Shown piece by piece: positions 1,535 through 60,329 of a stretch of DNA of 64,000 nt. Position 1 is the first letter of the stretch; each line of letters begins with the position of its first letter. Position numbers and translations under genes: made by a program. Below the pieces are notes generated by a model. The model searched no databases, was not told the origin of the DNA, and saw only the letters and a list, made by a program, of their open reading frames with translations. Source of the stretch: Callorhinchus milii (lineage: Eukaryota); the NCBI RefSeq assembly GCF_018977255.1, contig NW_024704742.1, positions 39,248,001-39,312,000 on the forward strand. Reading direction: 5' to 3'.

Positions 1535-2027
1535 GCACAAAGCCCTCCCCCCCCCCCGTGCACAAAGCCCTCCCCCCCCGCGCACAAAGCCCTCCCCCCC
1601 GCGCGCAGTGCCCGCCCCTCCCCACGCGCAAAGTCCACCCTCCCCACGCGCAAAGTCCACCCTCCCCACACACAAAGTCCACCCTCCCCATGCACAAAGT
1701 CCACCCTCCCCACGCACAAAGCCCCCTCCCCACGCACAAAGCCCACCGCCCCATGCACAAAGCCCACCCCCCCACGCACAAAGCCCACCCCCGCGCGCAC
1801 AAAGCCCACCCCCCCGCGCGCAAAGTCCACTTTCCCCCCCCGCGCACAAAGCCTACCTTCCCCCCCGCACACAAAGCCCACCCCCCCACGCACAAAGCCC
1901 ACCCCCCACGCACAAAGCCCACCCCCCCACGCACAAAGCCCACCCCCCCATGCACAAAGCCCACCCCCCACCACGCACAAAGCCCACCCCCCCCCATGCA
2001 CAAAGCCCACCCCCCGCGCACAAAGTC
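1535..2027. repeat. C-rich minisatellite, ~21-23 bp unit GCACAAAGCCCACCCCCCCAC
   Basis: About 20 units; G-runs on the minus strand. Confidence 0.95.
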
Positions 2028-5145: not shown

Positions 5146-5470
5146 GTTGAGGAGCCTCTTGTCCCTGTGTAAGCTGCTCTCGAATGGTACTTGTTTCCAA
5201 GGAATACATGCAGTTTTAATTTAGAGAGGAAATCCTTTTTTTCTATTCCTGCTTTTTGAGGAAGTGCACAACAGTAACTGGAAGTGATGAAAATCTGCTT
5301 TTAATCTGCTTTCACTTATTGATTACTTGAGAATTGCAGAACTAGATTTCTATATCGAAATTGATATTGATATTGGGAAAGGGTTTCGTTGATGTATAAG
5401 AAGAAGAAATACATCTCCAGAAATCAAATTGCTTGAAGAGTATTGAAATTGCGAAGCATTTTTAAACAAA
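5146..5470 (+). other. ZNF518B: 5' UTR part of the ZNF518B coding exon; splice acceptor at 5144-5145
   Basis: Polypyrimidine tract tctttctcattatag|gttg upstream of the long ORF. Confidence 0.6.
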
Positions 5471-8400
5471 ATGCAGCTGAAATGGTTACGAGTGCTGTTG
5501 CCTAAAATGGAAGATATTGCAGGGAAAGAGAGTTTTGCCAATGCTGCGTCAAACGTCTCTATGAAATCTGGTACTGGAAGAAGGCAGACTGCAAGGAAGA
5601 CTGCAGGATTGAAGAAGTCTACTTTGGATCATTCTAGCGCAAAGAGACAACATTTTGCCTCAAACCAGCATTTGGGTAAAAATAAAGAGCCAACAGAGAT
5701 ATGTGGTGATTTTGAAGGATACAGAAAGGACATAAATGAAATGTTAATGTTTTGTGTTAAATGTAAAGATATCCAGCAATTTAGTTTTACAGAATTACAA
5801 CAGCACTGCCGACAAAACCATCCTGAAGATAAGCCTTTATTTGTTTGTAGCCAATGTGGGTTTACTATTGATGATGCAGAACAAATGAATGCACATGCAA
5901 TTTCGCATGAAATGGATAACGTATTGAATACAATGCAGAGTGAAAATAAGGAAGATCAATCCTCAATTGTAGAGGGAAAGCTACCAAAAAGGAGACATTT
6001 GAAGCCCAATACAATGTATTGTAATAAATGTAGATTTTCAACAAAAGATCCATTACAGTTTCAAAAACATATTCTGAGACATGAAGAAATTCAGTACAAG
6101 TGTGGACGATGTGAACGGGTCTGCTATACGAGGGGAGAATTTCAGCGCCACTCCGTGCAACATACAGGAACATTTCCCTTCAAATGTAGGTATTGTGATT
6201 ATGGTGCAGTCCGAAAGGATTATGTTGTAAAACACACTAAGGGTGTACATCGTGACATCATAAAAANCGGTGGGTCTGTACTTGTACTACCAATGAGAAA
6301 AGGCAGCAAGAAGAAAGCTGTCTCCAAAATGAAGAATGTATTGAAAGTTAAACGAACAGCAATGGAACAAAGTGAGAATTCGGCTAATGTTGGTTTTCAG
6401 AATCTGGAGGGATTTTCATTGCCTTTAGGACTGAAATCTATTAATGGATCTTCTGAAATGAAGGATTTGGATAATGCTGCTTCTCTGGAAGCTTGTGTGA
6501 ACACCTGTGATATTGTAAGTTTGGAAAACTCTATGGTAGAAAATACTAATATTTTGAATTGCTCTTCTATGGAGGCCAGCAAAGTCCAGCTGAAGCTGCA
6601 GACATCTTCCAACCACACAGTCCAACCTGGTGCTCCATTAACTCTGGTTGCTCCAGCACAGATGGTTATTCCTTCCAACTGCTTGGCTCAGCTCATAGAA
6701 ATAAAAACAGTTAATGAGAAACAACAATTGGTATTCAAAATAATACCATCGACTGCTGTCCCTATGTTAGAAGCTAATGCATCTGGAGTGATTGCAAAGC
6801 CATCACAAGAACTGAATAATGCCCACATTGTACAACCGCAGAATCGCAGAGTCTTAAATCAATCATGTACACTGCTGACAAACCATGTGGATCCCACAAA
6901 TGAACTGCTCCAGTTAGATCCTATAAATAAAATTGCAGATACTAAACAGAATAGAATGGGCCTAAATGCTAACTTTATCATTTCAAGGCCACTCTCTACG
7001 ATTGATGCAGAATCGGTATCAAACAAAAAGGGTGTATTAGAGTGTAGAAGTGAAGACAGTTCAAAAACAAATGGAAGAGAAGAAAATCTAACTTCAATAA
7101 GAGAGTCTAGTGAAAATCAGCTAAAAGATGAAGGTCTTGCTTATGAACAACTGGAAAAAGTTACAGAACACAGCAATTATGGAAAAATGACCTCTGGCAA
7201 AGGTTCATTTACAAAACCATTTGCTGAAAGTGTATATGTGACAAATAAAACTAAAATGATTTTTTGTAATGCTCAAATAGCAAAAGACGACAGTTGTAAA
7301 AGTTTTAGCAAAGCAGTTGTATCATTCCCCTCGTATAGGACTCAGCAAAATATGCAACTTAGCATCACATCTCCTCGTACTTTACTCACTGTTGACAAAG
7401 ATTCAGAATTACAGACTAAGTCATCCACCAACTGCACAACTCGGGCTGCTAAAAATAGTGATAAGCAAATTACCCCTAATTTATGTATAGAACAGACTGG
7501 ATTTATATCTAACAAGATGTTTCACACAGATTATTCAAAAAAGCAAAGACTTACTGAGCAATCTATTGGTATGGAAACTTGCAATAGTTCTAAAATTCAC
7601 AGTAAGTGTTCTGTTGCTTTAAAGGAATGTAGTAACATAACTCAATTCAATTCTGAGGATTGTAGTGTGAAGTGTGTTAACAATCCGTATCCTGCATTGG
7701 AGCTAGGGGTCAACAGCAGGAATAAGCTATATTTGTCCGTTCAGGACTCTGATGCATCTAAGCACAAACAAATTAATGACAGTACAGATAAAACTAAATC
7801 AAGCTGCAATCATATTTTGATTACACAGGCACAAAGTCAGAGTCCAAAAAGTACAGCAGATGTTTATGCAAATGGGTCATCTATATCTACATTCTTGAAT
7901 GAATTATTAGTGCCTGTGGGTGACAAAACTGAAAACAAACACTCATTGTCTCTTTCCAGTATGCAGCCTGCACAGGACTCCAAAGTATCTCGATCACAAG
8001 ATGCAGCAATAAATGCAGAGGTGGTTCCTGATTTTAGAAACCAGTGTGACTTAATTAGAGCTGAGACTATTGATGATCCTTCTGTCAGTATACAATGGCC
8101 TATCATTTCTTCTGTATTTTCTCTTAGCTGTGGTTCTAACGATGTGCCAGAAGCTATTCGATGGGATAATGAGCACGAGAATACTTGCTCTCCATCCAAT
8201 TCTGCACAAGAAACATCAATAGGTAGTAATTTGCAAACTAAATCAGATTCCCAGTTTGTAAAAAATGGAGATGGAAAGGAATATCAAAGAAACTGCTTAT
8301 TTGCATCATCTGAGCATACTGTAAAACCAGTTGATCACTTTTACGCTATTCAGACAAAGGCTGAGAATGTCATAACTAATTCTGGGCAAAAGGAGCTGAA

Positions 8401-30800: not shown

Positions 30801-33800
30801 CTAAATTCAATTTCCAGACAACTTTAAACATAAGTGTGTGCACATACACACACACACACACACACACATTTGTGATGTTTTTGTTGCAAAATGGCCAACA
30901 GCATTTGAGATGAAACGCTAGCTGTCTCCAACACTTTTAAAATGAACTTTCAGCTATTTATTTTAAGAAAGTTAACACCTTGTAGAATCTTACTTTCCAA
31001 AGTCTGTAATATCTTTTCTAAATAATCTTTTACACCACAAACAACTTGCATTTATATAGCTCACATTTGGGTAGGGTCTTGAGAGTGCTTTTAGCTTAAA
31101 TAACTAACACAGTGTTTATATGCACTTGGGATGTGCTCCCGACACGAAAGGCGCTATACAAATATAATCTTGTTGTTGTTGTTGAAGATGGCTTGAGAAG
31201 CATGGATCTTGATGGAAAATGACTGACTAAAGATTTTATTCTTTATTTTTAGTTGTACCTTGCTGACTGAGGGATCGGAGGTTTAGGTCGAAATGACAGT
31301 GGAAGCTGATCTCTGCTTGGTGAGTGCAAGTCTCTGCTCAGGAGGGGCGGGTCTCTGCTCAGGAGGGGCAGGTCTCTGCTCAGGATGGGTGGGCCTCTGC
31401 TTGGTATGGGTTGGCCTCTGCTTGGTATTGGCGGGTCTCTGTTCATGGGGGACAGGTCTCTGCTTGATGTGAGCTGGCCTTTACTTGGTGTGAGCTGGGC
31501 TCTGCTTGGTGTGGGCAGGTCTCTGCTTGGTGTGGGCGGGTCTCTTTTCGACAGGGGCGGGTCTCTGTTCAGTAGGGGCAGGTCTCTGTTCAGTAGGGGC
31601 GGGTCTCTGATCAGTAGGGGCGGGTCTCTGATCAGTAGGGGCGGGTCTCTTTTCAGTAGGGGCGGGTCTCTGTTCAGTAGGGGCGGGTCCCTGTTCAATA
31701 GGGGCGGGTCTCTGTTCAATAGGGGCGGGTCTCTGTTTATAAGGGGCGGGTCTCTGTTTAGTAGGGGCGGGTCTCTGTTCAGTAGGGGCGGGTTTCTGTT
31801 CAGTAGGGGCGGGTCTCTGTTCAGTAGGGGCGGGTCTCTGTTCAATAGGGGCGGGTCTCTGTTCAATAGGGGCGGGTCTCTGTTCAATAGGGGCGGGTCT
31901 CTGTTTATAAGGGGCGGGTCTCTGTTCAGTAGGGGCGGGTCTCTGTTCAGTAGGGGCGGGTCTCTGTTCAGTAGGGGCGGGTCTCTGTTCAGTAGGGGCG
32001 GGTCTCTGTTCAGTAGGGGCGGGTCTCTGTTCAGTAGGGGCGGGTCTCTGTTCAGTAGGGGCGGGTCTCTGTTCAGTAGGGGCGGGTCTCTGTTCAGTAG
32101 GGGCGGGTCTCTGTTCAGTAGGGGCGGGTTTCTGTTCAGTAGGGGCGGGTCTCTGTTCAGTAGGGGCGGGTCTCTGTTCAGTAGGGGCGGGTCTCTCTTC
32201 AGTAGGGGCGGGTCTCTGTTCGGTAGGGGCGGGTCTCTGTTCGGTAGCGGCGGGTCTCTGTTCGGTAGCGGCGGGTCTCTGTTCGGTAGGGGCGGGTCTC
32301 TGTTCGGTAGCGGCGGGTCTCTGCTCGGTAGCGGCGGGTCTCTGTATGGTGGGGGCGGATTCCTGGTTGGTGGATGAAGGTCTTTGGTTGGTGAAGGAAT
32401 GTCAGGCTGACATCTAAAATGAATGCCTAAATGAAAAAATCAAAATGAATACTTTTATGAATATAATATTTACAATGCTGTATAGCCATTTCTATTTAGT
32501 GTTCAATAATTTTCAGTAAATATGGACCGTGAAGTAAAGCATAAATACATTCATCTATTATTGTTTGCTTAATTTAAAAAAAAATCTGCTCTGAAGCTCC
32601 CCAATCCTGGTTGGCAATCTCCGGCTGAGACGATGGACAATGTACTGCTCCCAGTCCTCTGTCGCCTTTCACATTAGGAGGTGGTTATCTTTCCCCTCCC
32701 CACATTCCTCAAGTCCCACCCCTCAGCTTGGGTACCCAGCCAGTGCTTTGGGAGGTCCTCCCAATGTGAGAGGGCAATATTAATAATATAATATTCCTTG
32801 CATTTGATATAGCACTTTTCACGTCTTCTGGACATCTCAAAGCCCTTCACAGAATATACTGTAAAGTGAATTGACCGTATATTTGTGGACAAAACGCGGC
32901 AGCCAATTGCGCACAGCAGTGTCCCACAAACAGTCGTAGATTGAAAGTGACCAATTTATTACTGTTTTGATTTGGAGGGATTATTATTAGGCATGTGGAG
33001 TAAGGAAACTTGCCCAAGGTTTCACCCTGCCTGGAATTGAATCCAGGTGTCTCGTTTGCAAAGCGAATGCTCTAACCACTGAGATACAGGACGCCAATTA
33101 AATAATAATACAAAACACAAATTTGTCATATGTGGAATCACAGCAGTAACTTTATCCTAGCACCCATGCCATTAACATATTGCACCACCAGAACACATCT
33201 GCATTTACTCTTGCTCCCTCCCATTCACTAACATCAATTTTGGTCTCTTTTGGTGAATTCTCTTGGAATCCACCAGGTGGAGTAATTTACAACAGTTTCT
33301 CTGTGTCGGATAGAATTCATTAAAACAAAGAATATTTTTTGCCATTTATATTAAATATGGTGAACAAAGGAATATTTTTAATCCCTCTGTGTTCTACGGA
33401 CGGCATGGAAGTTCAGCTTCCTTTCCGAACATTTCAAAAATACTTGGTAATTTATTCTCAGCTGTCACAGCGCAATACATCTTGTATGTCTGAGGATTAA
33501 CTCTGTATATCTTGGCTATAAAATGGTTTAAATATTATCCCCGTTGTAACAGAGGAAACGACAAGGGAGTAAGGAAAGCTGTAATGGTTATGGAGGAGTA
33601 GGTATGTATTTGTCTGACAGATCAGGTAAGTACAGCATACATGTAAGAAAAAATATTTCCAGACACAAATGTTGAGGGTGTTGTAAGGGCACAGAGGTCC
33701 TGTATCATATACTCACCAGAGTCAGCTATCAACATCATGAATAGTATTTCAACATCACTAATGCCATATTGTACACTGGCTTTATTTGCTGACCAAAATG

Positions 33801-36800
33801 CCCCCCAAATCCAACAATTTATGGATTTTATAAATACATAAACTGCACTTTGCAGTAAATCATGTATAGTGCTTTAAAATGCCCTCCTGACATCGAAATG
33901 TCTGCATCAAGTGAAAGGATTATAATAAAAACTAATACAAAAAAACTTATTCGCAGGCAGAGGACAGGTATTCAGTATCCTCTAGCAACTGAGGCAAATA
34001 AAATCCCATTTTGCAGACCTTCATGTCGCACATTTGGAGCGTCAAAGTTGTATTTCTTTTTATCACATATCAAGGGTAATTAACAACTGGAACTGATTGT
34101 CAGGATGGGTAGTTTAGGCCAAGATCACAAAATTGGTTGGATGAAGAAGGCTCTTCAGCCCACCTAATCTCATTCTTCGAATAGAAAATATAGAGTCAAT
34201 TTATTCTGTGAAATGCTTTGAGACATCTCAACGATGTGATAATGTGCTAAATCAAATGGAAGTATTATTATTATTATTAATACTCAAGTTACCGTTCTCC
34301 CATCACAGTGCTGAGCTACCTTTCAAAATAGTCCTTTTAGAAACTCACTTGAAAGACAGCTTGAGTTTGGTGCTGTAATAGAAATGGTAGGGTGAGTATT
34401 CTGGAAAGATGAGATCAGATGGGCTGAACGTCCAAACCAATCTTGTGATCATGTGAAGTTACAATATATAATTAAATGTTATGAGAGTTACACCCACATA
34501 ATAATGTATATATACAATTTTTTTTAGAAAACAAGCTACAAAATGTAGAAATTTTCCAAATATCAAAGTATTAATCGAGTGTTAAGTGTCCTCTGCAATG
34601 TGCTAGATATGGAGGTATCAGTGTGGCTTAGCTTGCAGTACTCTCATATCTGGGTCAGAAGGCTGTGGGTTCAAGAACCATGTTGGGATTCTGAGCTCAC
34701 AGACTAAACCTACCCTGGGTGCAATGCTGGAGGAGTGCTGCATTGTTAGCAGTGCTGTCCAATCTACAGTCAAACTTTACAATTAACCCTATTCAAAAAG
34801 AAGCGAGTTTCTCCTGTTGTCCTGGCCAAAAATACTCAAAATAAATTGATCTTTCCCTTTCGTGTTTGTGGAACTTCGCCGATCACCAGTTGGCTGCCTT
34901 GTCCACCTACTTATACACTACACTTGATAGCCATTACCTGTGAAGTGTTTTGAAATTATAAACAGTACAAATGCAAAGATTATTATTACTCACCCTTTCT
35001 TGGTATTATCTGTTGAGGAAAAAGAAGCAGTAATAAGGATTGCAAGCATGTTATATACTCTCAAATACCTAAACTAAGTTTCCCCCATAGGATTATTATC
35101 AATTTCATTTTACAGCTGAGGAGGAGGCAGTTAGGCCATTGAACATAGGATGGTGATAGCTTCTTTACCCAAGCTAACTCCTCTCATTCCAATTCTATAC
35201 TCTCTCTTTGTATCATTTTATATTCTTCCTCTTGAAATGTTTATTCAAATTCTTTTAAAATGTTTTCATGGTCACAACTTCAAAGGCACGTGAAGGTAAG
35301 TATTCAGCCTGATTTTATATTTTGTTTAACCAATTTACTAAGCAGCAGGAATAATCTTTCATTATCTATCCTCTCAAGATTTTTTTTCTCTATTAGATCC
35401 TCTCTTAACTTCTCTGTTTCAAGGAACCATCCCAAAATTTGTATCCACATAACTCTAACCTTGGTACGATAGAGGGTATCCAAAACTAGACACAATGCTG
35501 TAACCGGTACAACCAATGTCTTGTGCAAACACTCAAGTGCTTTCATTTAATTTTACTGTGAAGTTGATTAAAACAAAGGTTGAATGTTCCTCGCAAAGTT
35601 CTTTGATTATTTCACAGAAAAAATGTTAGAAAATGAAAGGGTTTAAAAACATTAGATACCTCGTCATTTGTATTCTTCCAAGGAGATCTGAAAGAGAACA
35701 AGAAGGTGAACGATAGCAGTTGTGTGTGGTAAATGTTCATACAGATAGATGATTTATCAAACTATAAGAAAACGTTCTGAATATAGTATCCAATTCAACT
35801 TACACTGTGCCATTGCCACTCTGAGTTGTCACTGGACTTTTTCTAGAGTTCAACAATTTGTTGGGTTCTGAGGGACTTTGGCTACGACTTGGTTCGGGAG
35901 GAAGTGGCTTGAAATCCTTGGGTAAATGCTTAGGAGGCCTAGATATACATATACATAAAAAATCATTAAATTCAGCTTTCATAACAGGTTTCTTAACCAG
36001 AACCTGGTTTGGTGGATACCTTTCTCAGGCGTAATAATTCCATCAAAAATAATAAATTGGTCCCTCAAGAAAAAAAAACAATAATAAAATTGGTCACTTC
36101 AATCCACGACTGTTTGTGGGACACTGCTTTGTGCAATTGGCTGCCGGGTTTCGCCCACAAAATATACAGTCAATTCACTTTACAGTATATTCTGTGAAGT
36201 ATTTTGAGATGTCTCGAAGATGTGATAAGGCGCTATATCAAATGCAAAGCTTATTATATTATTATGAATATATCAGAGTGGGTGGGGAATTTTAAAAATG
36301 GACAAGCAAAAGCAGAGGAAATTTATTAGAAGATACAAGGAAAGAACAGGGAATTAAGAGTATGATGGACTGCTTGTATGAGAGCCAAACACTGACAGAA
36401 AATATTGGGCTGAATGGCCTCCTATTGGCATTCATTTCTATGGTTTTATATGATGTTTCATAACAGATTCAGTAATTCTTGAAATTGTTTTTTTCCCACA
36501 CAAAGGGCTGTGGAAACATGGAAGTTACTACTTCAAAACATTGTAGATGTTGGTTCAATTAAAGTATTTAAGAGGGAGGGAGATGGATATCTGGTGGGTG
36601 AAGGGATCAATGAATATAGTGAAAGGCTAGGGAAATTATATTAAGTTTCAGATCAGTCACGACCCAATAAAATGTGAAACAAGTTCGCCGGGCTGAATAG
36701 TCTACTGTTTTCTAATGTTATTTTTAGCAGCCAATTTGCACCCAGCAATATTCCACAAACAGTCATGAAGCAATTTTATCTGGGGGATTGTTGGATACCA

Positions 36801-39800
36801 GGAGAAACTCTCTTCTCTTTTCGAATAGTGCCATGGGATCTTTAACATCTACCTGAAAAGCAGACAGAATCTCAGTTTAACATCTCATTCGAAGGATGGC
36901 ACCTCTGACAATGCAACACATCCTCAACTGCATTGGAGTGTCAGCCCGCACTTGTCAATTCAAAGTCTTTATGTGGGACTTGAATTTACAATCTTTCTCA
37001 GAGCTGAGAGTCCCAGCTGAACAGAATGACACGCAAGATTCAAGTAGTGTGGTTATAACTACAACCCTATATGCCATAGTCCATAGGGCAAGATTAACAT
37101 AGTCAGATAAGTACATTAAACCCCCATCTTACCAGACTCCGGGTATCCGGAATTTGGAACGAGTCAGACAGGACCCGAAAGCGAAAAATTGATAAAAGTT
37201 CCGTGGACTGAGTGCAGACTCATGCCGGCCACTCTCCTAGAGCGCTCCCCTACATCACCATGATTGTTGGTCTTCAGTGGCCAGGGATATTGACTTTGAT
37301 TCAGTTTGAATCCCTCAAGCAGAAGACAGCTTATTCGCTATTCAACAATTACAGTGACAGTACTGGCATTTACCAGTATTTTGAGGCGTTTTGCAGAAAA
37401 AAATCCAACGCTAAGAAAAGCTGGTAAATGCTGGCATTGTAATTACATTTAACTGGAAATTCTGACTTGATGACCATTGGTCTACTGTACTATAAAAGTA
37501 GCCAGTGTTTCATGCAGTCATACCTTTACCAAGTGTATTTGATTTCATATTACCTGGGTGGTGGTGCTGGTTGCTGTGGGGAAAAAAACAGTTCAGCTGT
37601 TGATGATCCAAATACAACATTAATTATACATTGTTATGCCACGTAATAGACTAGTTAGCAAAATTGAACTCCATGGGATAAAAGGGTTAAAAGGCAGTGT
37701 GGATATGAAATTGTCTAGGAGATAGAAAGTCGTGAATGGTTGTTTTTCAGTCTGGAGGGAAGTATACAGTGGTGTCCCCAGGGGTCACTGTCAGGTCCAC
37801 TGCTCTTTTTGATATATGTGAGTGATTTGGACTTGGGTATAGAAAGCAAACTTTTAAAGCTTGCAGATGGCACAAAACTTGGGAATGTAGTAAACAGTGA
37901 GGAGTATGGTAGCAGACTGCAGGAGATAGACAGACTGATAAAATGGACAGACGCGTGGCAGATGAAGTTTAATGCAGAGAAGTGTGAGGTGCTACATTTT
38001 AGGAAGAATGAGAAGAGGTAATATACACTAAATGGTCCAATTTTAAAGGGGGTTCAAGAGCAGAGTGACCTGGGGGTTCACATACACAAGTCTTAGAAGA
38101 TGGCAGGACAGGTTGATAGAGCTGTTAAGAAAGCATATGGGATCCTTGATTTTATAAATAAAGGCATAGAGTACAAAAGCAAGAAAGTTTTGCTACACAA
38201 TAACAATGTAAACAAAATTAAATTTCTATAGCACCTTTCACGTCCGGAGGACATCACAACCTTTATAAGTCACTGGTTAGGTCTCAGCTGGAGTATTGTG
38301 TCCAATTCTATGCATGATAATCTAGGAATGATATCAAAACCTTGTGCAGAAGAGATTTACCAGAATGGTATCAGCGATGAAGGACTTTAGTTATGTGGAG
38401 AGACTAGAGAAGCTGTGATTGTTCTCCTTAGAGCAGAGAAGGTTAAGGGGTGATTTAATAGAGGTGTTCAAAATTATGAAGGGTTTTGATAGAGTAGATA
38501 GGAAGAAACTGTTTCCTCTGGCAGGTGGGTCAGTAACCATGGCACATAGATTCAAGATAATTGGCAATAAAACCAGAGGGGAGATGAGGCAAAATTGTTT
38601 TACACAGAGAGTTGTTATGGACTGGAATTCATTGCTTGAAATGGTTGTGAAAACAGATTCAGAACAACTTTCAAAAGGGAATCGGATAGGTACTTGAAAA
38701 GGAAAGATTTGCAAGGATTTAGGGAAAGAGTGGGGGAGTGGGACTGATTGGAATATTACAGCACTCTATGCTATAATATTCTATGATTCTATGATTAAAT
38801 CGTGTGAAGCAGAGAGCTCTTGTGTTTTACTTGTGTTTGTAGCTTTACTCCAATTACTCTCAAAACAAAAAGAACCTTCTGTAACAAAACAAGAAAATAG
38901 AAGTGACCACGCCTTCTCCAGACCATGGGAAAGTTTGTCTGAGGCTTGTTCATTGAACCTGTCTCCTCAAGTTCTGTCCTTGGTCCAATTTAATATCACA
39001 AACATGATCCAAGCTTTGAAAACACTGAGAAGCCTAAATGAAACAGATGTCTATGATTCTCAAGCGTTTTCAAGGCTGGGATCATGTTCCTGATCATACT
39101 GAAGAACTAGATAAATAGAATAAAGTTTGCGGGCTTTTAAGTCTACAGCTGCTAAAATTATTTCAGCGAAAAATGATTCTTGTGAAAGGTGATAGATTCC
39201 TTCAAGGTAATAACAAAAAATGGCAATCGAGAACTAAAGGAAGATTCTACTTCCCGAGAGGAATGAACTGCCATCTAGCGACTGCTGGTGTTTTTTACAC
39301 AGTGACAGGCTTAAACATTGTAATCTCCACTTCCAATTTTTAACTAAACATTTTTAGCAACAAACTGAGTGACAGACTGATTATTAAAATCTGCTTGTGA
39401 GAAAATGAAATGATGAGAACAAAGATGTGATATAATTCAACAAAAGCATCCTTTTCATGGATTGCCAAACATAATGAACAATTTGAGATATCCTTACCCT
39501 GATTTCAAGGATCGAACTTTTCTCTGACAAACAAAAAGAAAAGTAGTATTGTTATAGCTTTTTCACAAACATGAAGTCAAGCTTAACCTACTCACAGCAC
39601 TACTAAATTTATTGCTAATTTGTTATGTTAAAATAGTACAGAAGTTGCAGTATAAATATTTTTCACATCTGGAACAGTTTCAGCAACATTGAGATTGATG
39701 AATTGCTGGGTCAAGGCCGTATAGTAACTGTTAAGAAATAAATATGCATATAAATGAAACCTAAACAAAACATCAGAAGATTGTGAGTTCAACGACATCA

Positions 39801-42800
39801 GTACTTTGAATTCATATAGTCCAGCCCAGTTCATTGCAAAGTGTTGCATTGTTTGAGTTACCATCCTTTGGATGAGATGTTAAACCAAGGTTAGTTTATC
39901 TGTCCAGGTGGCCATAAAAGATCCCATGGCACTATTTGAAAAGAGAAGGGAGTTTCTTCTGTGTCCTGACCAACAAACTCCCAAATAAAATTGGTCACTT
40001 ACTCCATGATTGTTTGTGGGATATTGCTTTGGGTAAATGGGTTGCTGCATTTGCCTCCAAAACACACAGTCACTACACTTTACAGTATATCATATGAAGT
40101 GCTTTGATATGTCTTTCGAACATGAAAGGCACTATATCAAATGCGATGATTATTATTGAAGATCATAGAAATCCCTTTTCAAGAGTAATGCTCATTGCCA
40201 AGAATAACTCTACTTCATTATTTTAATACTGGGAGTAATTTCCAGGTTCGCTTAGGCTATCCATAGAATTTGCCTTTGTGCCAACATGTGTACAGCAGTA
40301 ATGAAGGTGTCTATTTAGATAATTAAGAACTGATGGAAACGATTCATGAGTTTCTATAAATCTTTTCAACGGTTGTTAATTACACATGGTTAACTCAACT
40401 TCACAATTGTGCACGAGGTGTTAACCAAACCAATAAATTATACTCTACTGTAACTGAAACCAGCTATTTTTAATTCATTTGACATATAGGAAAATTATAT
40501 AGTTGGTCATGATACATATGCACCAGCACAGGCGACGGATAATATTGCAGTTACACTGTTGGGAAGGAATCAGCTTCACTCTTATGTGACTTGCACTTCC
40601 CCCTCCACATCACTTACAATAATGTCAGGAAAAAAAAGGGGTTGAGATTTTAAGTTTATTAACATGCTATTTGCTCATCAATAACACTAAAAGTACTCTG
40701 TTAAAGAACCAATAGCTTTGAATTGAGGATCAAGCCCAGGATAATATGTATTTACCATGTGTACACTGTGCAGTTACAAATTGTAGCCTAGAACTTATCT
40801 TAACCTCACAATAAACCAACAGTTGTATTATACTTTGGTTTTCTGAGACCTGCAATTATTACACTAACTAACCATGGCATCTTATTCTTAGATATGGTAC
40901 AGAAAAGATAGTTATCTCTTTGGATCTCTTTGAGACAAAAGCATAGTTCAATTTTTTTAAATTGGACATTAGGTGATTATACAGATGATTAGAGAAGAGT
41001 AAGATTCGTTTAAATCTAAGGTCTGTTTAATATAACTTGACGTGTTGTTTATTCCAAAACTTTCTCTTCAGCGAAAAGATTAATATGATGCAAAGTTGCA
41101 AATAATCAATCTTAAAATAAATATTTGCAAAGTAAAAGAAAAATCTCTCATCCAAATCATCAAATAAATCATAGCAGATTCATAATCCAGCCAAAAGTTT
41201 AACTGTCAAAATGAATCATGCCTAGAGATTACAGTAGGGCAGGTTGGAACTATCCATCCAGGCTTCTGAAGCATTAAACAAAACAGCAGACTAGGTACAC
41301 TGTAACTATCTGCCATTTAACTGTTAACCATAACTCTGTTCGTAACTCTGTCTGTTCAGCACCTTAGGAAGTCCTCCCGATGTGAAAGACGCTTTACAAA
41401 TGTAATTTTGTTGTTGTTGTTGTAACCAATAGTCCTTTTAGGCCTCAAGCAGGGAATCACCTTCAAGTTACATGGTCTCACGTTCTCCAGTCATTCTGAA
41501 GCCTTTGATTTTTCTTCGGTCCAAGTATTGACAGAAGGGCAAAGCCATTCAAGCCAGCAAATGTTTCTTGCCAGTCCCCAGGTAGGTTGTGACCTACCTG
41601 GGGACTGGCATACTACTGGTCATTTTTCCCCTTCCCACCCCATTCTGCTCCCACTCCCAGGTTGGATACCCAGCCAGCAGTGCCAAATGTTTTGTGATGT
41701 TCTCCCATGCAAAAGCTGCTATATAAATATAAATTGTATTGTATTTCTTCAGCCTTTTTTTGTAATCCTTCCATAATATTGCAAAGTTTTTTTTTTCAAT
41801 ATACAATCTTTCAAAATACAAAATCTTCTGAGCTCAATGGAGACTGAAAACTGCAAATTAATTACATGCTTATTGATAGAAGTGAACCAAACTTTCACTG
41901 TTTTTTTAAAAAAATATAACACATTAAGAGCCTACCTGGGGACTGGTGAGAAACATTTGCTGGCTTGAATGGCTTTGCCCTTCTGTCAACACTTGGACCT
42001 AAGAAAAATCAAAGGCTTCAGAATGACTGGAGTGTAATCCTCTATTATCACACATGGAATAGTTATAATAGTCTTCTTTATTTACTTTGAGTAAACATTG
42101 TAACTCGAAGATCATAATCGCACAAGAGGCTTGGTTGAAGATGGCTCTTGGACTATACAATCTCATTGTTCTGGAATCTCAACCTGATTGTCTTCCAATT
42201 ATAACATCAAGCTATTTATAAAACAAGTACAGTGTCTTGTCATTGGAATTGGACCAAGCTCAACCATAATTTGCATAAATTTGTCTCTCTTCCGCTCCTC
42301 CATTCCAGAAATAATTTCAAATCCTCTTTCTCCCACTGGAGTATGGTTCTATGATTGCTGTACACCAATAAAGAGGAAACGGAATTGAAATCATCAGTGT
42401 TCCTCATCTAAGTGGCCATTACTCATGTGTGAATGTTAACAGTGAGCACTGACAGGCTATCAAATGGCTGGAGCAGCAAAGCGGAGTCCGATCCAGTACT
42501 TTCACTCCACAAAATGCAAATCCCAGCAGACATATCTGGATAAGGATTGGGAACCCTGGCTGATTCTCCCCTCCCTTAAACCAAGGAGCACTGAAGTAAA
42601 TTGTAGTATCCAGACTGCTGTCAGGCTGAGATTAGCAAACTCAATACAATTATATTGTATTTAACTCAGCGCAGATCTGGATTCAAACCCAGACGTTCTG
42701 TTTTTTTAATAGTTAGATTCTCTTCTGATATTGTGTGTTATTCACAGATCTTTTATGAGTAGAAAAATATCATCTCGATAAAAATGCACTGGGTATATAG

Positions 42801-45800
42801 TCCCCAAAGGTAATGGGGGGTTGGGGGTAAGGGGGGGTGGGGGAGAAATTGTCTTTTGTAAAATTAAAGGTATTTGTAAGGGTCTCTATCGGAAGGGGCA
42901 GATGACCAGGCAGTTTAGATTTATAGAGTTAGAGTTTTAAGTTCTCTAAAACTTAAGGATATTTTTGAGATAAATCTTTATCAGAAGCGCAAAATACTGA
43001 TATAAGATCTTAATTCCCCTTTGACTACTTTAGTCAGAGGGTAGTAAAAATGTAGAATGGATTGCCTAAGAAAGTAATTGAGGCAAGTGTTAGCTACAAC
43101 AAAACATAACTAAATTGGTAGATGATGGCATTGGAATTGATGTGTACGAGAGCTTTATAAAATGGGACTGATAATAATAATAATCCTTGCATTTGATATA
43201 GTGCCTGACTGACAGACAGACTGACAGAATATGTTTCCACATGAGCCAGATACTCGGCCTACCCCACCCCACAAAAAGCTACACATTTCTCAAAGAGCCC
43301 TGTATAAAATGGCATCATTACAGTTTTACCAAAATACCGGAAAGCATACTACTAAACAGAAAACAGGAAACTGTTCTGAGTCCTTGCAGTCAGCTCTACA
43401 AGAGACTAACAAGTAAGCCTCAAAAGAAATGTCAAGTACAGGAAAACCACAAATAATTGAGTTTCAGTTTTTGAAGAAATTGGTGCGTTTGCTAAGAATG
43501 GAAGCCAAACCTTCAGAAGGTTGGTGAAGAGTTTCAGGGCCAGGAAACTGAATAACCGAACGTGAGTTGGATTCAGAAATATTCTTGCCTCTCTGCATTG
43601 AGAAAAAGAACATATATTGAAAAATAAATTACAAAATCAAGGCATCGGATGCATAGATTAAAAGTAACTTTTAACTAAGAGTAAAAGCAAAAGGACAATA
43701 GATTTAATTACTATAAACTAATGTAGAACGGCTAAACTATAATTATTAATCTGGGCAATATTACAACAACCATTGCCAATCTCATGTTTTAATAAATGTT
43801 CTGTGTTTGTTTCTAAAGTTCCGTTAAGGACAAGACAACGGCTGCTTTGGTTGTGAGGTACGGACAGAGGCAGACAATGTGACGGAGGCAGTTATGATCA
43901 GATACAATTAAAGAAGCTGCTTACATTGTTATTGTTCCCGCAGTATGTGTTGGGTTGAACATTCAACATTGAATGTTGTCTAATAACCCCTGAAGGTTGT
44001 TGAAACAGGGCTGGTCTATCCATTGGAACGCGTGTAGGTGGCAAAGATGGTAAACAATTCTTGTCTGTTATGATAAAGAAAACAAAATTCCAAGGGGTTT
44101 CTTTGTTCAATTCATGAGCCTTTATAATAACTCTGAAGCCTTATTCAACTGTAATACAATTCCAAATGTGTTAGTCAGGCTGTACAATGCTTATTATGTT
44201 TAAAAAAGGAGCACATTTCATATTCATATCACTTTCTGCAATGTATCTGAATATTACAGCAGAAACTGAAGTGGTGAATAAAAATAATTGCTTTTCAATC
44301 AAAACTGAGAAAAATGTATTCAAGCATAGCTACACAGTAATCTGATATCTAGCTTTATAAGCATCAATACCTTGTGAATTGTTTTTGATATGTAACAGTG
44401 GGTTAAACACAGACTATAAACTAGTTTCCTTGTTGTCATATGGACTTTGTTAGATGAGGTAGTAAACTATTGAGAGCACAACACAGCACAATAAAATTGA
44501 AATACGGTAACTTGAAGTTAATCATTTCCTAACCGTCGTACAAGCAAATCATAATCTTTGCAGTGAGTTCAAATTATAGTTGAGCTTTTTAAAAATATAC
44601 AATAAATCTTCAATGGTTTTGGAGTAGTTACGTCACAAATATTTAGCAATGTGAAGAATGATCTGGGTGTTTAGAAGTTTGTGTTCACTGTAAGAAAGAA
44701 ACAAGCAGAAACAATTTCATTTGGAGCTGACTTCAGAATCTTCCAATACACATACACTCAGCATTAGCTGCAGCCGATCAGTAGAGGGCAAGAATGTTCA
44801 ATCTTCATGTATTGGTTCAACTGTACGAGAAAAATATTTCTCGAGAGCTGTAAATCTTTCCAGCTGTACAAAGCCTGAAAGCTCTAATGTTACATTTTCC
44901 ATCTTTTTTTTCCTCTCGTGTTCCCAACTTCTTTTTCCTCTCTTAAAGATGTATGGGATTTATCCCATGAGCATTCTCAGCGCTATAGTGACTCATTGAT
45001 ATGATCATTCTTTACGTGTGAATCTAGTCAATGAGTGGTTATGGGGTATTCAACCACAAAGGACATCACAGCTAAATTCTGTCCTCAGCTAATGTCATGT
45101 ACATGGACTTTCCAGGAATTACATTATATTAACAATCAGAAACAGGGCTGGGCTGATTCCACCACCACCCACCCTCCGCCACTACCCACCACACACACGT
45201 ACCTATGATTAGATTTTGAGCCTGGGTGAAGCACTCCTATTACTCATTTGGCTGCTGTCAGTAAGACATGCACAGAGTAGTGATCTAATTCTGATTGACA
45301 AGGCTCATTAACATATAAAATAATCCTTGCATTCACCCAAAGAAACATAGGAGGAGTAATGTTTCATATTTAATAACACTCAGACACACATCAGAGAGCT
45401 GAAATTTCTCCTGGTCTTTGTCCTAGGACCATTGTTTTAAAATTTATAATTGTGCAAAATATTGCAAAATTCTTAAATTCAGGTTTTAACATAACATAAC
45501 ATGTAGGACAGGAGTAGGCCATTCGGCCCTTCGAGCCTGCCCTGCCATTCAATCATGGCTGATCTTCTAATCTAACTTCAGCTAACAACCTAACCCTGCC
45601 TTATCCCCATATCCCTTAATTTGTTTTCCACACATTGATTTAAAAAAATTGGGTCTGAAAATTTTTTTGTAGGTCTTATCAATAAAAATAATACTCCTTG
45701 CATATGATATAGTACTTTTCACGTCTTTGAGACGTTTCAAAGCATTTCACGGAATATAAGAATAATAATAATCCTTGCATTTGATATAGCGCTTTTCACC

Positions 45801-46464
45801 TCTTCTAGACGTCCCAAAGCACTTCACAGAATATACTGTAAAGTGAATTGATTGTATATTTGTGGGCAAAATGTGGCAGCCAATTGCATATAGCAGCATC
45901 CCACAAACAGTCGTGGATTGAGTGACCAAATTATTATTGTTTTTTTTCTTGAAGGATTATTATCAGGTGTGTGGCGTAAGGAAACTTGCTCAAGGTTTTG
46001 CCCTGCTGGGAATCGAACCCAGGTCTCTCACATGTGAGGTAAGTGCTCTAACCACTGAGCTACAGGACTCCAAGTCCTGCTGATATTGATCACAAAAATA
46101 GCAATTGTTTTACTGCTTCTTTATAATGGGCCTAAGCATAAAATATTCCTCTTAACTTCAGCAAAACAATGATCCATGCTCTGTGTTTAACCTTAAGAAT
46201 GTTTTATAGTTAGTATCCTAAAATAATAATAATAATTATCCTTGAATTTTGATATAGCCAAATATTACTATCAGTGCATGAATAAAATCTCACCTGCATA
46301 AACTGACTGCATGTTTATTGGCTTTGCAGGACAAATTTTCACATGTCGCAGATCGTCCAGGCTGGATGAAACTACATAATCATAGCTAAGTTCCTGATCA
46401 CTATCCTCAATAGGGATTTCGTATTCAGATTCATCTTCAATCATCATCCTTGTGTTGCATCCAT
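24741..46464 (-). CDS. CLNK: CLNK/MIST (SLP-76 family adaptor), span of 15 well-supported coding exons (~776 codons)
   Basis: All exons have AG/GT boundaries and compatible phases. [42 protein letters not shown] and the C-terminal SH2 match human CLNK as recalled (KILPARPIKESEYAD, PLPPPRP..LPKKYQPLPPEP, RCQP); synteny with ZNF518B. Confidence 0.88.
25281..25588 (-). mobile_element. tRNA/Deu-SINE
   Basis: Head ggagtcctgtaacgcattggttagagc on -, ATT tail. Confidence 0.85.
26543..27225. mobile_element. Nested SINEs: + copy (26543-26720 and 27031-27225) split by an inverted full copy (26714-27025)
   Basis: ggataataat occurs on both sides of the inner copy and the outer halves are contiguous in the consensus. 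Confidence 0.85.
27385..27610 (-). mobile_element. Older DeuSINE (SacSINE1/AmnSINE-like); related copies ~34615-34985(+), 36725-37025(-), 39830-40160(+)
   Basis: agtgccatgggatctttaacatc..gtttaac..ctgcattggagt..gtgctaccgactgagcca blocks shared between copies. Confidence 0.6.
27814..27969 (-). CDS. CLNK: CLNK SH2 core exon
   Basis: [52 protein letters not shown]|gtaagt; FLVR motif; phase 0-0. Confidence 0.95.
28014..28445. mobile_element. L2 fragment (+, 28014-28240) followed by SINE 3' part (-, 28248-28445)
   Basis: [44 protein letters not shown] tail and Deu core. Confidence 0.8.
28986..29063 (-). CDS. CLNK: CLNK SH2 first exon
   Basis: atttcag|[26 protein letters not shown]|gtaacc; phase 0-0. 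Confidence 0.93.
29762..29853 (-). CDS. CLNK: CLNK exon
   Basis: (V)[30 protein letters not shown]|gtaaat; phase 1-0. Confidence 0.8.
30159..30187 (-). CDS. CLNK: CLNK 29-nt microexon
   Basis: tttttatgctag|(S)TSNRISQIP|gtataa; phase 2-1, needed to join the flanking exons. Confidence 0.7.
30839..30868. repeat. (CA)n microsatellite
   Basis: Direct reading. Confidence 0.9.
31259..32426 (-). CDS. CLNK: CLNK 1168-nt exon containing the 21-bp coding VNTR
   Basis: ttttttcatttag|(G)[35 protein letters not shown]..(NRDPPLL)n..[11 protein letters not shown]|gtacaa; phase 1-2, no stops. Confidence 0.8.
31300..32370. repeat. 21-bp minisatellite, ~50 units (AGTAGGGGCGGGTCTCTGTTC)
   Basis: Direct reading; all units 21 nt. 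Confidence 0.97.
32779..33094 (-). mobile_element. Full-length tRNA/Deu-SINE
   Basis: Head, core and tail present. Confidence 0.9.
34994..35009 (-). CDS. CLNK: CLNK 16-nt microexon
   Basis: tttttcctcaacag|IIPRK(G)|gtgagt; phase 0-1; strong splice sites. Confidence 0.7.
35660..35687 (-). CDS. CLNK: CLNK 28-nt microexon
   Basis: ttctctttcag|(V)SPWKNTNDE|gtatct; phase 2-0. Confidence 0.7.
35804..35938 (-). CDS. CLNK: CLNK proline-rich exon
   Basis: (R)[44 protein letters not shown]|gtaagt; phase 2-2. Confidence 0.9.
36030..36265 (+). mobile_element. tRNA/Deu-SINE 3' two-thirds
   Basis: Deu core and tail. Confidence 0.8.
37554..37573 (-). CDS. CLNK: CLNK 20-nt microexon
   Basis: tttttttccccacag|QPAPPP(R)|gtaata; phase 0-2. 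Confidence 0.85.
37640..38790 (+). mobile_element. CR1 LINE 3' fragment, with a short inverted L2-type tail inserted at ~38198-38260
   Basis: [58 protein letters not shown]; (ATTCTATG)n-like tail. Confidence 0.9.
39498..39523 (-). CDS. CLNK: CLNK 26-nt microexon
   Basis: tttttgtttgtcag|(E)KSSILEIR|gtaagg; phase 1-0. Confidence 0.75.
41485..41586 (+). repeat. Inverted copy of the CLNK exon region 41931-42032
   Basis: 102 nt, 4 mismatches against the reverse complement of 41931-42032. Confidence 0.97.
41612..41745 (+). mobile_element. LINE (L2-type) 3' tail fragment
   Basis: gttggatacccagccag..gctatataaatataaattgtattgtatt; related to 32686-32780. Confidence 0.55.
41936..41998 (-). CDS. CLNK: CLNK 63-nt symmetric exon with RxxK motif
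   Basis: gatttttcttag|(G)[20 protein letters not shown]|gtaggc; phase 1-1. Confidence 0.88.
42270..42700 (-). mobile_element. LF-SINE-like fragment (further candidates ~28480-28740 +, ~44915-45160 -)
   Basis: aagtggccattactcatgtgtga, gaaccctggctgattctcccctccc, ctcagcgcagatctggattcaaaccc. Confidence 0.55.
43511..43592 (-). CDS. CLNK: CLNK exon
   Basis: tttttctcaatgcag|[27 protein letters not shown]|gtttgg; phase 0-1. Confidence 0.75.
43925..44064 (-). CDS. CLNK: CLNK exon
   Basis: (D)[46 protein letters not shown]|gtaagc; phase 1-0. Confidence 0.8.
45497..45620 (-). mobile_element. CR1 3' terminal fragment
   Basis: Near reverse complement of 19005-19138. Confidence 0.85.
45761..46071 (-). 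mobile_element. Full-length tRNA/Deu-SINE
   Basis: Head, core and tail present. Confidence 0.9.
46294..46464 (-). CDS. CLNK: CLNK acidic tyrosine-motif exon (alternative acceptor would start at 46468)
   Basis: (D)[56 protein letters not shown]|gtgaga; YEIP = YxxP phospho-motif. Confidence 0.88.
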
Positions 46465-48192
46465 CTGGCTGCAAATGTGCACACAAACACAGATATTTTA
46501 ACACAATTTTAGCAACATATAAGAAAATCAGTCATTTATAAGTAGATTTCTAGGCAATCTGCGATTAAAACCCTTGAAGCAGTTTGTTTTCTGGTCAGCT
46601 GGCTGTCCAAAACATGCAGAAACCCATCACCATGCTTAACAATGTCCAAACTAAACTGAGAATTCCACATATATGGCATCCACACCTTAAACTTTCTCTG
46701 TGTCTGCACTCTCTCCCTGTAAGGATGCACCCTGCTCACTAATTCTGGAGTGTATTAAATGCAGTTTGGTGAAAGTGAAGACTTATGAAACCCAGAGTGT
46801 GCATTGGTACTCTGCTAAAACCTCATAGCTTGCCTTTAAGAGTATTATCAGATAAGAGTACTGTATGGCAAGCTTCCTGTTCAGTTAGAACCAAACCTAC
46901 CTATTAATTTGCAGGCTTAACACAAACTCAGTGACTGTCCCTCCAAGTCCTGCAGTGCTTTGGAGAACTGTGGATACACCTGGTTCAGCAAACAGATGAC
47001 CAGAACCATCACAGAGAACTGCCTTACTTCAAACTTTCCAATGCTAAGTACTTTGGAGCCAATTTAGCTTTAAGAAGACCCAGTTTAACTCCTCCCTCCA
47101 CCCCAATAAAAAAGAATAATGAAATATACTGAAATATACCTTCAACTACTATATTCAATTTGTCTTTATTATTGTCTGTATTTGGCTAAAAGAATATGAT
47201 TTAAATACATATCTATAACACTATATGGGCAACACAATGCAGTATTTCATAAGTCTAAGACATGGCCACTATCTTTATAATAATAAAAAATACTTTCATT
47301 TGATACAGTGCCTTTTTATGTCGGGAAAAGATTTTATAGGAAAATGCAGCAGCCAATTTGTACGCAGCAATGTCCCACAAATAGCCATGAAGTCAATTAT
47401 AATAGCATTGTTGCAGAAATCAGGCCCATTTTTACCAAAGGTTCATTACAAATAAACTTAATACTTTCTTCATAAAATTGCCATACACAGTAAAAAACAT
47501 TTTTGGAATGAGACTATCTTGCAGGAAAACATACAGTAATTGCTACATTACAGGAAAACCAAACAATAATACCACACGTATGAATTGTGATGCAGTCCTG
47601 CAAAGCTTTGATCTAAATTATGCAACATGAAGCAAGCTCTATCTTGCAATACTGACTGTAGAATAAGATGTAATCCTTTAAAGGTTACACTTGAATAGTT
47701 TGACACTTCCTGTGCATCATATCAGGTGCTGTATTTTTAGATGTACTTTAGTGAGTCGTAACAAGGAAGCAATTGCCACAGGAAGGATGCTTTTTGATCG
47801 CTTTGTGGCATCTCTTTTAGAAGTTAAGATCATAAGACCACACGAGAGGTTAGAATGAAGAAGGCCCTCTGGTCAATCTGATCTTATCCTTCCAGCAACC
47901 CACCCTGGAAGAAAAATTTTGAACAGCTTGTTTTCCCATGTCTGTGGGAGATAAATACAAGAGATGCCAGAATTAAGGTAACTTTATATATTGACTTAAA
48001 TTGTAACTGTGGTTGTTTTAGTATTCTCACTAACAACAAAATATATTTCAAACAGCATTACCCTTTGCACATTTAAACCTTAAATGATATTTATGCACAA
48101 TATCTGCACAAAGCATCTGATAACCAATAACAAAGCATGATATAATTTTCCTTCTTAAAATAAACTTTATCATCCAAAGAGATGTTCATCAC

Positions 48193-57784: not shown

Positions 57785-59040
57785 AATAATAATCCTTGCA
57801 TTTGATATAGTACCTTATCATATCTTCGATACTTTGTGGCAGCCAATTGCACACGAACAGTCATGGATTGAGTGCCCAAGTATTTTTTAAAAGAGATTAT
57901 TATCCCCCTCCAATCGACTAACAACAGGGTTTCTAATTACTGCTAGGTAAACAGAGGCATGTGAAGTAAGGAAACTTACTCCACACTACTCTTTTGCCTA
58001 TTGCTTTGCCCTGCCCGGGAATCATTACAATTATGGAATTATCCAGAACAGAAGGAGGCCATACGGTTAATCGTATCCGTGCCAGTTCTTTGAAAAGAGC
58101 TTCCAAATCAATCCCATTCCCCCGCTCTCTCTTCATAGCCCTGCAAACTTGTCCTCCCCAAATAAGTATCTACTTGTCTCTTAAAAGTTGTTATCGATTA
58201 TTGGCTTCCTTTCAGGCAATGCATTCCAGATATGAAAAACTTGGTGTATGAAAACATTTCTCTTCACCTCCCCTCTGTTTCTTTTAACAACTGTTTTAAA
58301 TTGGTGTCCTCGGGTTACAGACCCATGCACCAGTGGAAATAGTTTCTCCTTGTTCACCCTATCGAATCCCCTCATAATTTTGAAAACTTCTATTAAGTCT
58401 CCTCTTAACCATTTCTGCTCCAAGGAGAATAATCCTATTTTCCAGCCTCTCCTGATAACTGAAGTCCCTCATTCCTGGTACCGTCCTGGTAAATATCCTT
58501 TGCATCCTCTCCAATGCCTTGACATCCTTCCTAAAGTGTGATGCCCAGAATGAACACAGTAGTCTCGCTGAGGCCTAACCAGTGTTTTATAAAGGTTCAT
58601 CATAACTTTCTGACTTTTGTATTCTATGCCCCTATTTATGAAGCCTAGTATCCCATATGCTTTTTTAACAGCTTTATCTACCTGTCCTGCCACCTTCAAA
58701 GATTTACTTATATGAATCCATAGGTCTCTCTGTTCCTTCACCCCCTTTAAGATTTACCATCAGCTTATATTGCTTCTCCTTATTTTTCGTTCCAAAATGC
58801 ATCATTTTGCATTTCTCCACATTAAACTTCATCTGCCACGTGTCTGCCCATTTTACAAGTCTGTCTATCTCCCCTTGCAGTCTGCTACTATTCTCCTCAC
58901 TGTTTACTACATTTCCTAGCTTAGTATCATCTGCAAACTTGGAAATTGTACTCCCTATACCCAAGTCTGGGTCATTTATATCGAGCCCAGGTCCTTTAGC
59001 TTGCGAAGCCAGTGCTCTAATCAATACACTACAGGACTCC
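57785..59040 (-). mobile_element. SINE split within its B box by a CR1 3' fragment (58024-58979)
   Basis: On -: head..gggctcGAT [[35 protein letters not shown]..tail] GATtcccgggcagggc..SINE body. Confidence 0.88.
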
Positions 59041-60329
59041 ACTTTTTGTAAGTAAAACAGCCAAGTTTTTATCCCCCACTCCTTCCATCTGTATCATTCA
59101 AATTAAATGTAAGGATTATTATTTCCCTCTGCGGTGCTGCGGTTTGTGGTGTTAAAGGACTCGCCAGTGAACCAGCAACTCTGCAGAAAGCCTTCACTTG
59201 GGTTATGTTATGATCCTCTGTGCAGTGCATGACCCTACTATCTGCTTATTTGCTCTCACCCAGCCTGGACAGAGAAGAATATTCAACCTATTTTACCAAA
59301 TTAACCTTCGCACCAAAATATTAACATTTTCACAGTATAATGTGAGCCTTGAAATTATGTGACAGTTGCTTTTATTTGTTTTAGGGGTCTATTATTTAAA
59401 GAAAACACAATGAAGTCTAATATTCACATTAACATAACAACAGATTTCTACCTCCTATCTTTTGAAAAATAGCAGGTTTATCTGTAACCAAGCTTAGTAT
59501 GTTTGAGAAAGATTTTTGTGAAAATATTCAAAAATGTATTTTAAATCCTAAGAGATTATAAAATTCCTTTGGGGGTTAAATTTGTTGTGGTTCGACACTT
59601 CTAAAATGAATGAGAAAGGACAGTGAAAAATTGTAGTCATTGGAGTGTAAACCACTTTAATGCACAGTCATATAGCTTTAAATAATTGCGCAATATTTTA
59701 ATAATGTGCTGACATACCTCGGCAGTGCAACACCTTAAACTGGAGACAGCCTCGAGGTGTTGAAGATTTATTATTGCGGATAGAGACATACACGCTAGAA
59801 AAAAACATGAAATCCTTATTGTCCCACTCAGGCACCTTAGGGGTGATTCTCTGGTAGTCAGGAAATTTACAGACCTTGGGAAATCCATTATAAACTCAGA
59901 CCGCTGAGCTCTGTAAATTTATGGGCCAGCGGAGAATACCACACTCTCATCTGCCATGGACTTTAAATTTACTGATGACTGGAGAATTATCTCCTTTGTG
60001 ATAGTGCAGCACCACAGCACTCTCCAAGGCTACCTACATAGCATAGTCACCTTCTTAAAGCATGGATACATAGATCTTTGAAAAATACTACTTTGTGTGT
60101 GTTTTTGGATCAAATAGAACAATAGATTTGTCAATCAAAATAAAACTTGTTGAAAAGCAAGTGGAATAAGTAGCAAACTTAAAATAATATATAAGTATTA
60201 AATATCTGATCTCATTTCACTAAACAAAATCAGAATTACATTTCTTTGTCTAGCGGCTGGGAGAAAAATGAGGGCAAAATGTTTTGTAATCCTGTGCACT
60301 CTCTCTTTTCAGGATTTATAATGGAGGAT

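Follow-up and report, generated by a model that had tools for sequence, protein, structure and literature searches.

The immune adaptor gene related to CLNK that occupies most of a 64,000-nucleotide (nt) stretch of the Callorhinchus milii genome (assembly GCF_018977255.1, contig NW_024704742.1, positions 39,248,001 to 39,312,000 of the forward strand; hereafter the window, in which all positions below are counted) carries an antisense copy of one of its coding exons in the intron next to that exon. The copy ends in a perfect hairpin with a stem of 19 base pairs (bp), at positions 41569-41610. The evidence presented here indicates that this hairpin probably marks the turn in a young insertion of ~124 nt (41485-41608), templated and inverted, that was made by template-jumping DNA synthesis during replication or break repair and likely retained as a tolerated by-product.

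A perfect hairpin at the tip of an inverted exon copy

The hairpin is made of a left arm (41569-41587, plus strand, TGCCAGTCCCCAGGTAGGT), a tgtg loop (41588-41591; CACA in the pre-mRNA) and a right arm, designated e' (41592-41610, minus strand, ACCTACCTGGGGACTGGCA), which is supported by a direct repeat, by folding and by alignment to a family of short interspersed nuclear elements (SINEs; see below). As proposed in a preliminary description of this DNA, the stem is perfect: it is present in the letters themselves and was returned by the repeat finder as an inverted repeat with 19-nt arms, 100% complementary and 4 nt apart (I8). A scan of the window for perfect stems of at least 10 bp with loops of 3-10 nt yielded five rows. 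Four of them are this same palindrome, read with various loop sizes, and the remaining one, at 18748, has a stem of 10 bp, leaving 41569-41610 as the sole perfect hairpin with a stem longer than 10 bp in the 64 kb. The longest perfect stem in 20 block shuffles of the window was 13 bp. When folded as RNA (minus strand, 61 nt), the hairpin has an energy of -41.0 kcal/mol (z -8.7); when folded as DNA, -25.1 kcal/mol (z -9.1). Neither value was equaled in any of 200 shuffles. The 19-bp palindrome is real and lies far above chance expectation.

The gene context was established by protein comparison. A minus-strand open reading frame (ORF) at 46271-46531 is 100% identical to a predicted C. milii protein (P0001) and 67% identical to the catshark "cytokine-dependent hematopoietic cell linker" (CLNK; P0002), a protein with an SH2 domain. 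Searching the window with P0001 and P0002 (tblastn) outlined a minus-strand gene with exons near 62.1, 53.1, 46.4, 44.0, 43.55, 41.97, 35.9 and 32.4 kb, followed by SH2-coding exons at 29.0, 27.9 and 24.8 kb. Residues 176-196 of P0001 (21 amino acids, aa) were mapped to 41998-41936. The tblastn matches and the peptide mapping thus give an in-frame coding exon of 63 nt (41936-41998, minus strand), with the acceptor ttcttag/GT at 42000-41999 and the donor CAG/GTAGGC at 41936/41935; the exon and the donor on which the preliminary description relied are genuine. The preceding exon ends at 43511 and the following one occupies 39523-39498. An orthologous exon is carried by all five of the longer catshark (Scyliorhinus) CLNK models, three partial members of the protein cluster (132, 46 and 209 aa) having been left out of that alignment.

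The inverted copy, A' (41485-41586, plus strand), matches a source segment, A (41931-42032, minus strand), that takes in the entire exon together with 34 nt of the upstream intron (polypyrimidine tract and acceptor included) and 5 nt of the downstream intron. A' was detected as a tblastn match to the exon peptide on the plus strand and, together with A, as a 102-nt inverted repeat, 96% complementary, with 344 nt between its arms (I1). Its place is 350-450 nt from the start of the downstream intron, which is 2.4 kb long, and in the pre-mRNA it reads antisense. The target hit by this copy is a functional one, a complete in-frame exon with both of its splice sites. The left arm of the hairpin is the inner end of A' and so, as had been suggested, the part of the antisense copy able to pair with the last 13 nt of the exon and with the donor. 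The right arm contains a second, much shorter copy: 41593-41608 is identical to 41931-41946 in the same orientation (direct repeat D15), so that 16 nt of the exon/intron junction recur here in the sense direction. Read on the minus strand, this copy presents the second donor-like site that had been pointed out earlier (CAG/GUAGGU at 41600-41592, cut after 41598), referred to below as the decoy donor.

A is the original and A' the copy

A' agrees with A, a nearby stretch of the same locus, at 98 of 102 positions in reverse complement; the differences are at 41947, 41948, 41990 and 42000. In both of those that stand isolated, the functional state is found in A (an intact A in the AG acceptor in one case, a Val codon shared with catshark in the other), and these two changes therefore fell in A'. 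A DNA contig from a relative spans 41870-42264 as a single piece that has 43 differing letters and 8 gaps; none of the listed pieces lies left of 41870. Since the exon is shared with catshark and the relative's contig spans A, segment A appears to be ancestral and in place. As judged from these sequences, A is the original and A' is the copy. In the C. milii genome itself (~991 Mb), A and A' are the sole occurrences of the arm sequence, and a search with A alone at E values up to 10 gave two candidates, itself and A'. The repeat is therefore not formed by the inverted ends of a transposon.

Directly to the right of the hairpin lies an old SINE-like copy (41611-41749, plus strand) that aligns to positions 90-229 of a 235-position family model (nhmmer, E 1.9e-43). 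It lacks its 5' part and, since it starts immediately beyond the hairpin, is truncated at the hairpin. The family has many copies in the genome, with identities of 75-84%, and the profile was built from 25 of these other copies. Between the SINE tail and A is a spacer (41750-41930), of which the portion searched, 41755-41930, is single-copy in the genome. Farther left, a second SINE, of a very abundant kind, contributes its tail at 41334-41432. Of the 138 positions at which the copy at 41611-41749 could be aligned, 24 depart from the family consensus (17.4%), a value close to the median of the 25 other copies (17.1%, range 10.4-22.9%). Because A and A' differ at only 4 of 102 positions (3.9%), the inverted copy is much younger than the SINE that adjoins it. 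Neither A nor A' nor the left flank showed SINE homology: nhmmer gave no match to any of them at E values up to 10 with filters off, and the shuffle tests were non-significant (1524, 517 and 777 of 2000).

Probable origin by snap-back synthesis

All 19 positions agree between the two arms of the hairpin, and agreement with the exon segment is limited to 16 of 19 for either arm. The right arm has A at 41592 where the exon segment has G (41930), and CA at 41609-41610 where the exon segment has TG (41947-41948). At all three flanking positions the left arm (41587 and 41569-41570) complements the right arm and not A. Because the arms agree better with each other than with the exon, one of them was apparently copied from the other, which is the signature of a strand that snaps back on itself. 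Of the readings proposed in the preliminary description, a fold-back or template-switch event is the one that best fits the letters. In the alignment of the SINE family, the CA at 41609-41610 falls opposite the C(G/A) with which the aligned region begins. Plausibly, then, this CA is SINE sequence that was already there and the TG at 41569-41570 is its copy. If so, two of the four differences between A and A' were born with the event itself.

What the sequences show is the anatomy of the locus, its gene context and the relative ages of its parts; the order of the template jumps we infer as follows. On the new minus strand, a 3' end lying in the old SINE would have copied 16 nt of the nearby exon/intron junction, and a few untemplated bases would have been added. 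The strand would then have snapped back and copied 19 nt of itself, including 2 nt of SINE sequence. Through the 16-nt identity just made it could have re-annealed on the exon segment, where a further 84 nt would have been copied through the exon and the acceptor before joining to the left flank. As a result, the next intron would hold the complete CLNK exon in antisense, with a perfect 19-bp hairpin at the tip of this copy. As for microhomology at the junctions, the CA at 41609-41610 is possibly common to the SINE and the new strand, and none is seen at 41484/41485.

A simpler scheme would have a single inverted template switch copying A, with the 16-nt sense copy arising separately and the additional T:A and TG:CA pairs of the stem resulting from later decay of an ancestral CpG. 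TG versus CA is indeed the classic pair produced by CpG decay and, with both arms decayed, complementarity would be kept in half of the cases. However, the scheme calls for three independent CpG transitions (at 41569-41570, 41609-41610 and 41947-41948) plus a matching change at 41587/41592, and it leaves unexplained why a 16-nt sense copy should lie exactly at the tip. Nor are the loop and the sense copy of 16 nt (41593-41608) accounted for by a single switch-and-return defined by four points; further jumps are required. We regard the decay scheme as unlikely.

The perfect 16-nt direct repeat also brackets a 322-nt insert, with a SINE-like element beginning at the left repeat. This arrangement could be read as an older, perfect 103-bp palindrome (A'-tgtg-A) that was later split by the SINE and the spacer, the 16-nt repeat being the target-site duplication. 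The divergence values speak against such a history: the SINE has moved 17.4% away from its consensus, compared to 3.9% between the arms and a match at 16 of 16 positions between the repeats. The SINE is, moreover, truncated at position 90 of the 235 in its family model, 176 nt of single-copy sequence separate its tail from the second repeat, and the relative's contig joins the right part of the spacer to A. A split palindrome is accordingly given very little credence. The reading as a retroposon flanked by its target-site duplication was rejected, since no complete, younger element lies directly between the repeats (a truncated SINE and 176 nt of unique sequence are found there, with divergences of 17.4% versus 3.9%).

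Predicted folding of the pre-mRNA

The preliminary description envisaged two mutually exclusive folds, one in which the local hairpin frees the true donor and another in which the long duplex hides it, and likened this arrangement to a switch. Ensemble folding was carried out in silico on a 701-nt stretch of the pre-mRNA (42100 to 41400). The two folds do exclude each other, as the tip of the antisense arm pairs either with e' or with the donor region, through the same site. Their populations are very unequal: the tip pairs with e' with a probability of 0.98 and with the true donor region with a probability of 0.001, the latter value applying also to pairing of the donor itself (-3 to +6) with the arm. 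The polypyrimidine tract is paired to the arm with a probability of 0.98 and the exon with a probability of 0.79. The decoy donor is buried in the hairpin (probability of being unpaired, 0.017). The duplex of e' with the tip is worth -41.0 kcal/mol and that of the donor region with the tip (16 bp) -36.5 kcal/mol. Shuffling e' raised donor-to-arm pairing from 0.001 to 0.89 (mean of 5 shuffles) at an ensemble cost of 4.9 kcal/mol; forcing e' to remain unpaired cost 13.3 kcal/mol.

Stepwise folding of growing transcripts, used to represent folding during transcription, gave the same picture. All 19 hairpin pairs were formed once 41569 had been transcribed and were never displaced, none of the 9 donor bases was paired to the arm at any transcript length, and 83 of the 84 acceptor-plus-exon bases were finally in the long duplex. 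In these stepwise folds the hairpin forms first and stays at every length. The switch-like behavior was not supported in silico, the second state being unpopulated in the absence of an outside factor (0.98 versus 0.001). The notion that the hairpin frees the true donor held in part: the donor does stand outside the duplex in the folds, but the acceptor region, the polypyrimidine tract and about 50 nt of exon stay inside it. The model thus predicts an 83-bp duplex enclosing ~50 nt of the exon along with the acceptor and the polypyrimidine tract, and a hairpin that keeps the last 13 nt of the exon and the true donor out of this duplex while hiding the decoy donor. In such folds the hairpin would act as a one-sided clamp sparing only the donor, and not as a bistable switch.

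These results bear on the idea that the locus is an evolved anti-antisense splice switch, in which the tip alternates between the hairpin and the true donor and thereby sets the inclusion of the exon. The two pairings being mutually exclusive, and the tip moving onto the donor when e' is disabled in silico (0.001 to 0.89), are what such a device would need; so is an exon of 63 nt, which can be left out in frame, together with one predicted isoform lacking exactly its 21 aa (see below). Against it, the alternative state is populated at 0.001 in the model, the hairpin forms first during transcription, and masking of the acceptor and of most of the exon does not depend on where the tip pairs. Being young and seen in one genome, the element offers no conservation or covariation in support. 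Lastly, the perfection of the stem needs no selection and is no evidence for it: by our own arithmetic, 38 unchanged bases are expected in about half of the cases on a branch with ~2% change. A switch of this kind seems quite improbable.

The same hairpin, or the long duplex, might conceivably be the precursor of a small RNA (a microRNA, miRNA, or an endogenous small interfering RNA). There are weak, generic hairpin matches to miRNA precursor models. A typical miRNA precursor, however, has a stem longer than 19 bp with a 4-nt loop, and the six Rfam matches obtained for the hairpin at E values up to 1 all fall far under their gathering scores, the best being mir-28 (29.1 bits versus 64). A small-RNA gene is the least probable of the explanations we considered. 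A chance ORF across the region (41426-41776) has no match in Pfam.

Isoforms of the 63-nt exon

Four of the five C. milii protein models in the cluster include the 21 residues of the exon. The remaining one, P0006 (335 aa, as compared to 356 aa for P0004), lacks exactly those residues, as would result from clean skipping of the 63-nt exon. All of these isoforms are predicted protein models. The skipping isoform is compatible with a duplex that lowers recognition of the exon, a suggestive but unproven connection, and the long duplex may, on the folding model, contribute to the annotated skipping. Sequence reads were compared to positions 36000-48000 at a likeness of 80, in runs X5 and X7 (both guessed to be RNA) and X8 and X9 (DNA of relatives). 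Among the matches listed, there was no RNA piece on the exon or on the hairpin and no joint at either the true or the decoy donor; the tables are swamped by copies of SINEs and of long interspersed nuclear elements (LINEs) and are uninformative either way.

Two further features of the gene may be noted. An inverted pair of 31 nt, 94% complementary (40127-40157 and 43176-43206; I3), has one arm in each of the introns that flank the 63-nt exon. Both arms lie within highly repeated SINE sequence, and the pair could loop the exon out independently of A'. Elsewhere, contigs of run X7 cover 46328-48000 at 100% identity, continuing unspliced from inside the exon at 46468-46295 into the upstream intron; this coverage may reflect unspliced RNA or DNA in the library.

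Discussion

Perfect hairpins and inverted insertions have been described as products of template switching and of fold-back synthesis (PMC8794818, PMC5453318, PMC5728401, PMC11724301). As in the mutations explained by the four-point template-switch model (PMC5453318, PMC8794818), a reverse-complement copy makes a perfect stem in one event, with no need for selection. Unlike them, the present copy is 102 nt long, its source is 345 nt away and a short sense copy stands at the turn. The authors of the four-point model state, in the passage cited, that it does not cover multiple successive switches (PMC5453318). The resemblance to snap-back insertions at breaks, such as those of synthesis-dependent microhomology-mediated end joining (SD-MMEJ; PMC5728401) and those described in yeast (PMC11724301), is in the folding back of a 3' end that copies its own strand, leaving a small loop between short, perfectly inverted arms. 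The hairpin is a short-loop inverted repeat of this type, with arms templated on each other (19/19, versus 16/19 with the exon). The cited fold-backs are mostly of ~5-34 bp, whereas the present 19-bp snap-back would be followed by 84 nt of further copying from a nearby template. At the DNA level, the locus is a well-preserved further case of template-switch or fold-back insertion.

At the RNA level, there is some likeness to exon-masking structures formed over long distances and to the competition between docking and selector sequences in mutually exclusive splicing (PMC6071210; ATE1, PMC7797038), where two sequences compete for one site in an architecture made by duplication. As far as the cited accounts go, those systems choose among exons, are conserved and use all of their alternatives. 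The competitors here are a 16-nt copy and the donor region of the exon itself, and the element is seen in one genome; two sites for the same sequence are present, but in silico one competitor wins and only one of the alternatives is populated. Inverted intronic repeat pairs such as inverted Alu elements (PMC13019027, PMC2533698) likewise place long intramolecular double-stranded RNA near an exon and have been associated with skipping. The Alu pairs described there flank the exon in two introns and loop it out, while in the CLNK-like gene one of the arms is the exon with its splice sites.

Several points weigh against the proposed insertion and its neutrality. The event requires at least three template jumps and thus goes beyond the single switch-and-return model. 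If gene conversion has acted on the two arms, the copy could seem younger than it really is, and the polarity and age of the insertion are deductions from sequence comparison. The motif GACCTACCT, at 41591-41599, sits 1 nt away from the position at which the SINE would be expected to have GACATACCT; this proximity, for which we have no explanation, may reflect microhomology that guided a jump, or chance. The similarity of CCTACCT to the SINE is unremarkable in a position-free test (517 of 2000 shuffles). Finally, the exon-skipping isoform is found in one of five models in C. milii and in none of five in catshark, and an effect on splicing, or even selection on such an effect, may have been at work.

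We consider it most likely that the structure is a mutational footprint that has been tolerated, as opposed to a regulator shaped by evolution. Its interest lies in part in its legibility: source, inverted copy, turn-around and a datable repeat can all be read in a multi-step template-switch record. It is conceivable, though doubtful, that one multi-jump error gave a constitutive exon a built-in antisense and by itself made a cassette exon of it in the lineage of the chimaeras, with the hairpin sparing the donor and setting the frequency of escape. Such an origin would amount to a one-step birth of structure-controlled alternative splicing. Should the duplex lower inclusion of the exon, the locus would be a natural case of alternative splicing made by RNA structure in one mutation; should it have no effect, a near-perfect 83-bp duplex that includes an acceptor would prove to be tolerable in a pre-mRNA.

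Other features of the window

The CLNK-like gene extends over 24753-62142 on the minus strand. Its predicted C. milii proteins (227-356 aa, named "extensin-like" or uncharacterized) have no SH2 domain, and the four longer ones (335-356 aa) finish in a proline-rich repeat. The SH2-coding exons that match catshark CLNK are at 29066-28986, 27975-27781 and 24869-24753, and the C. milii models look incomplete. A coding minisatellite lies within the gene at 31249-32439; its 21-nt unit encodes NRDPPLL-like heptads and it is open in several frames. LINE reverse-transcriptase fragments are found in a CLNK intron at 37719-38021 and 38419-38697 (RVT_1, E 2.2e-05), and a similar fragment is present at 58181-59093.

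On the plus strand, an ORF at 5447-10873 runs for 1808 codons without interruption, with C2H2 zinc fingers at both ends and one ambiguous base. It is probably a single-exon gene of the ZNF518 type, placed tail to tail with CLNK. A second minisatellite, at the start of the window (1135-2100), is GC-rich (60%) and open in all six frames.

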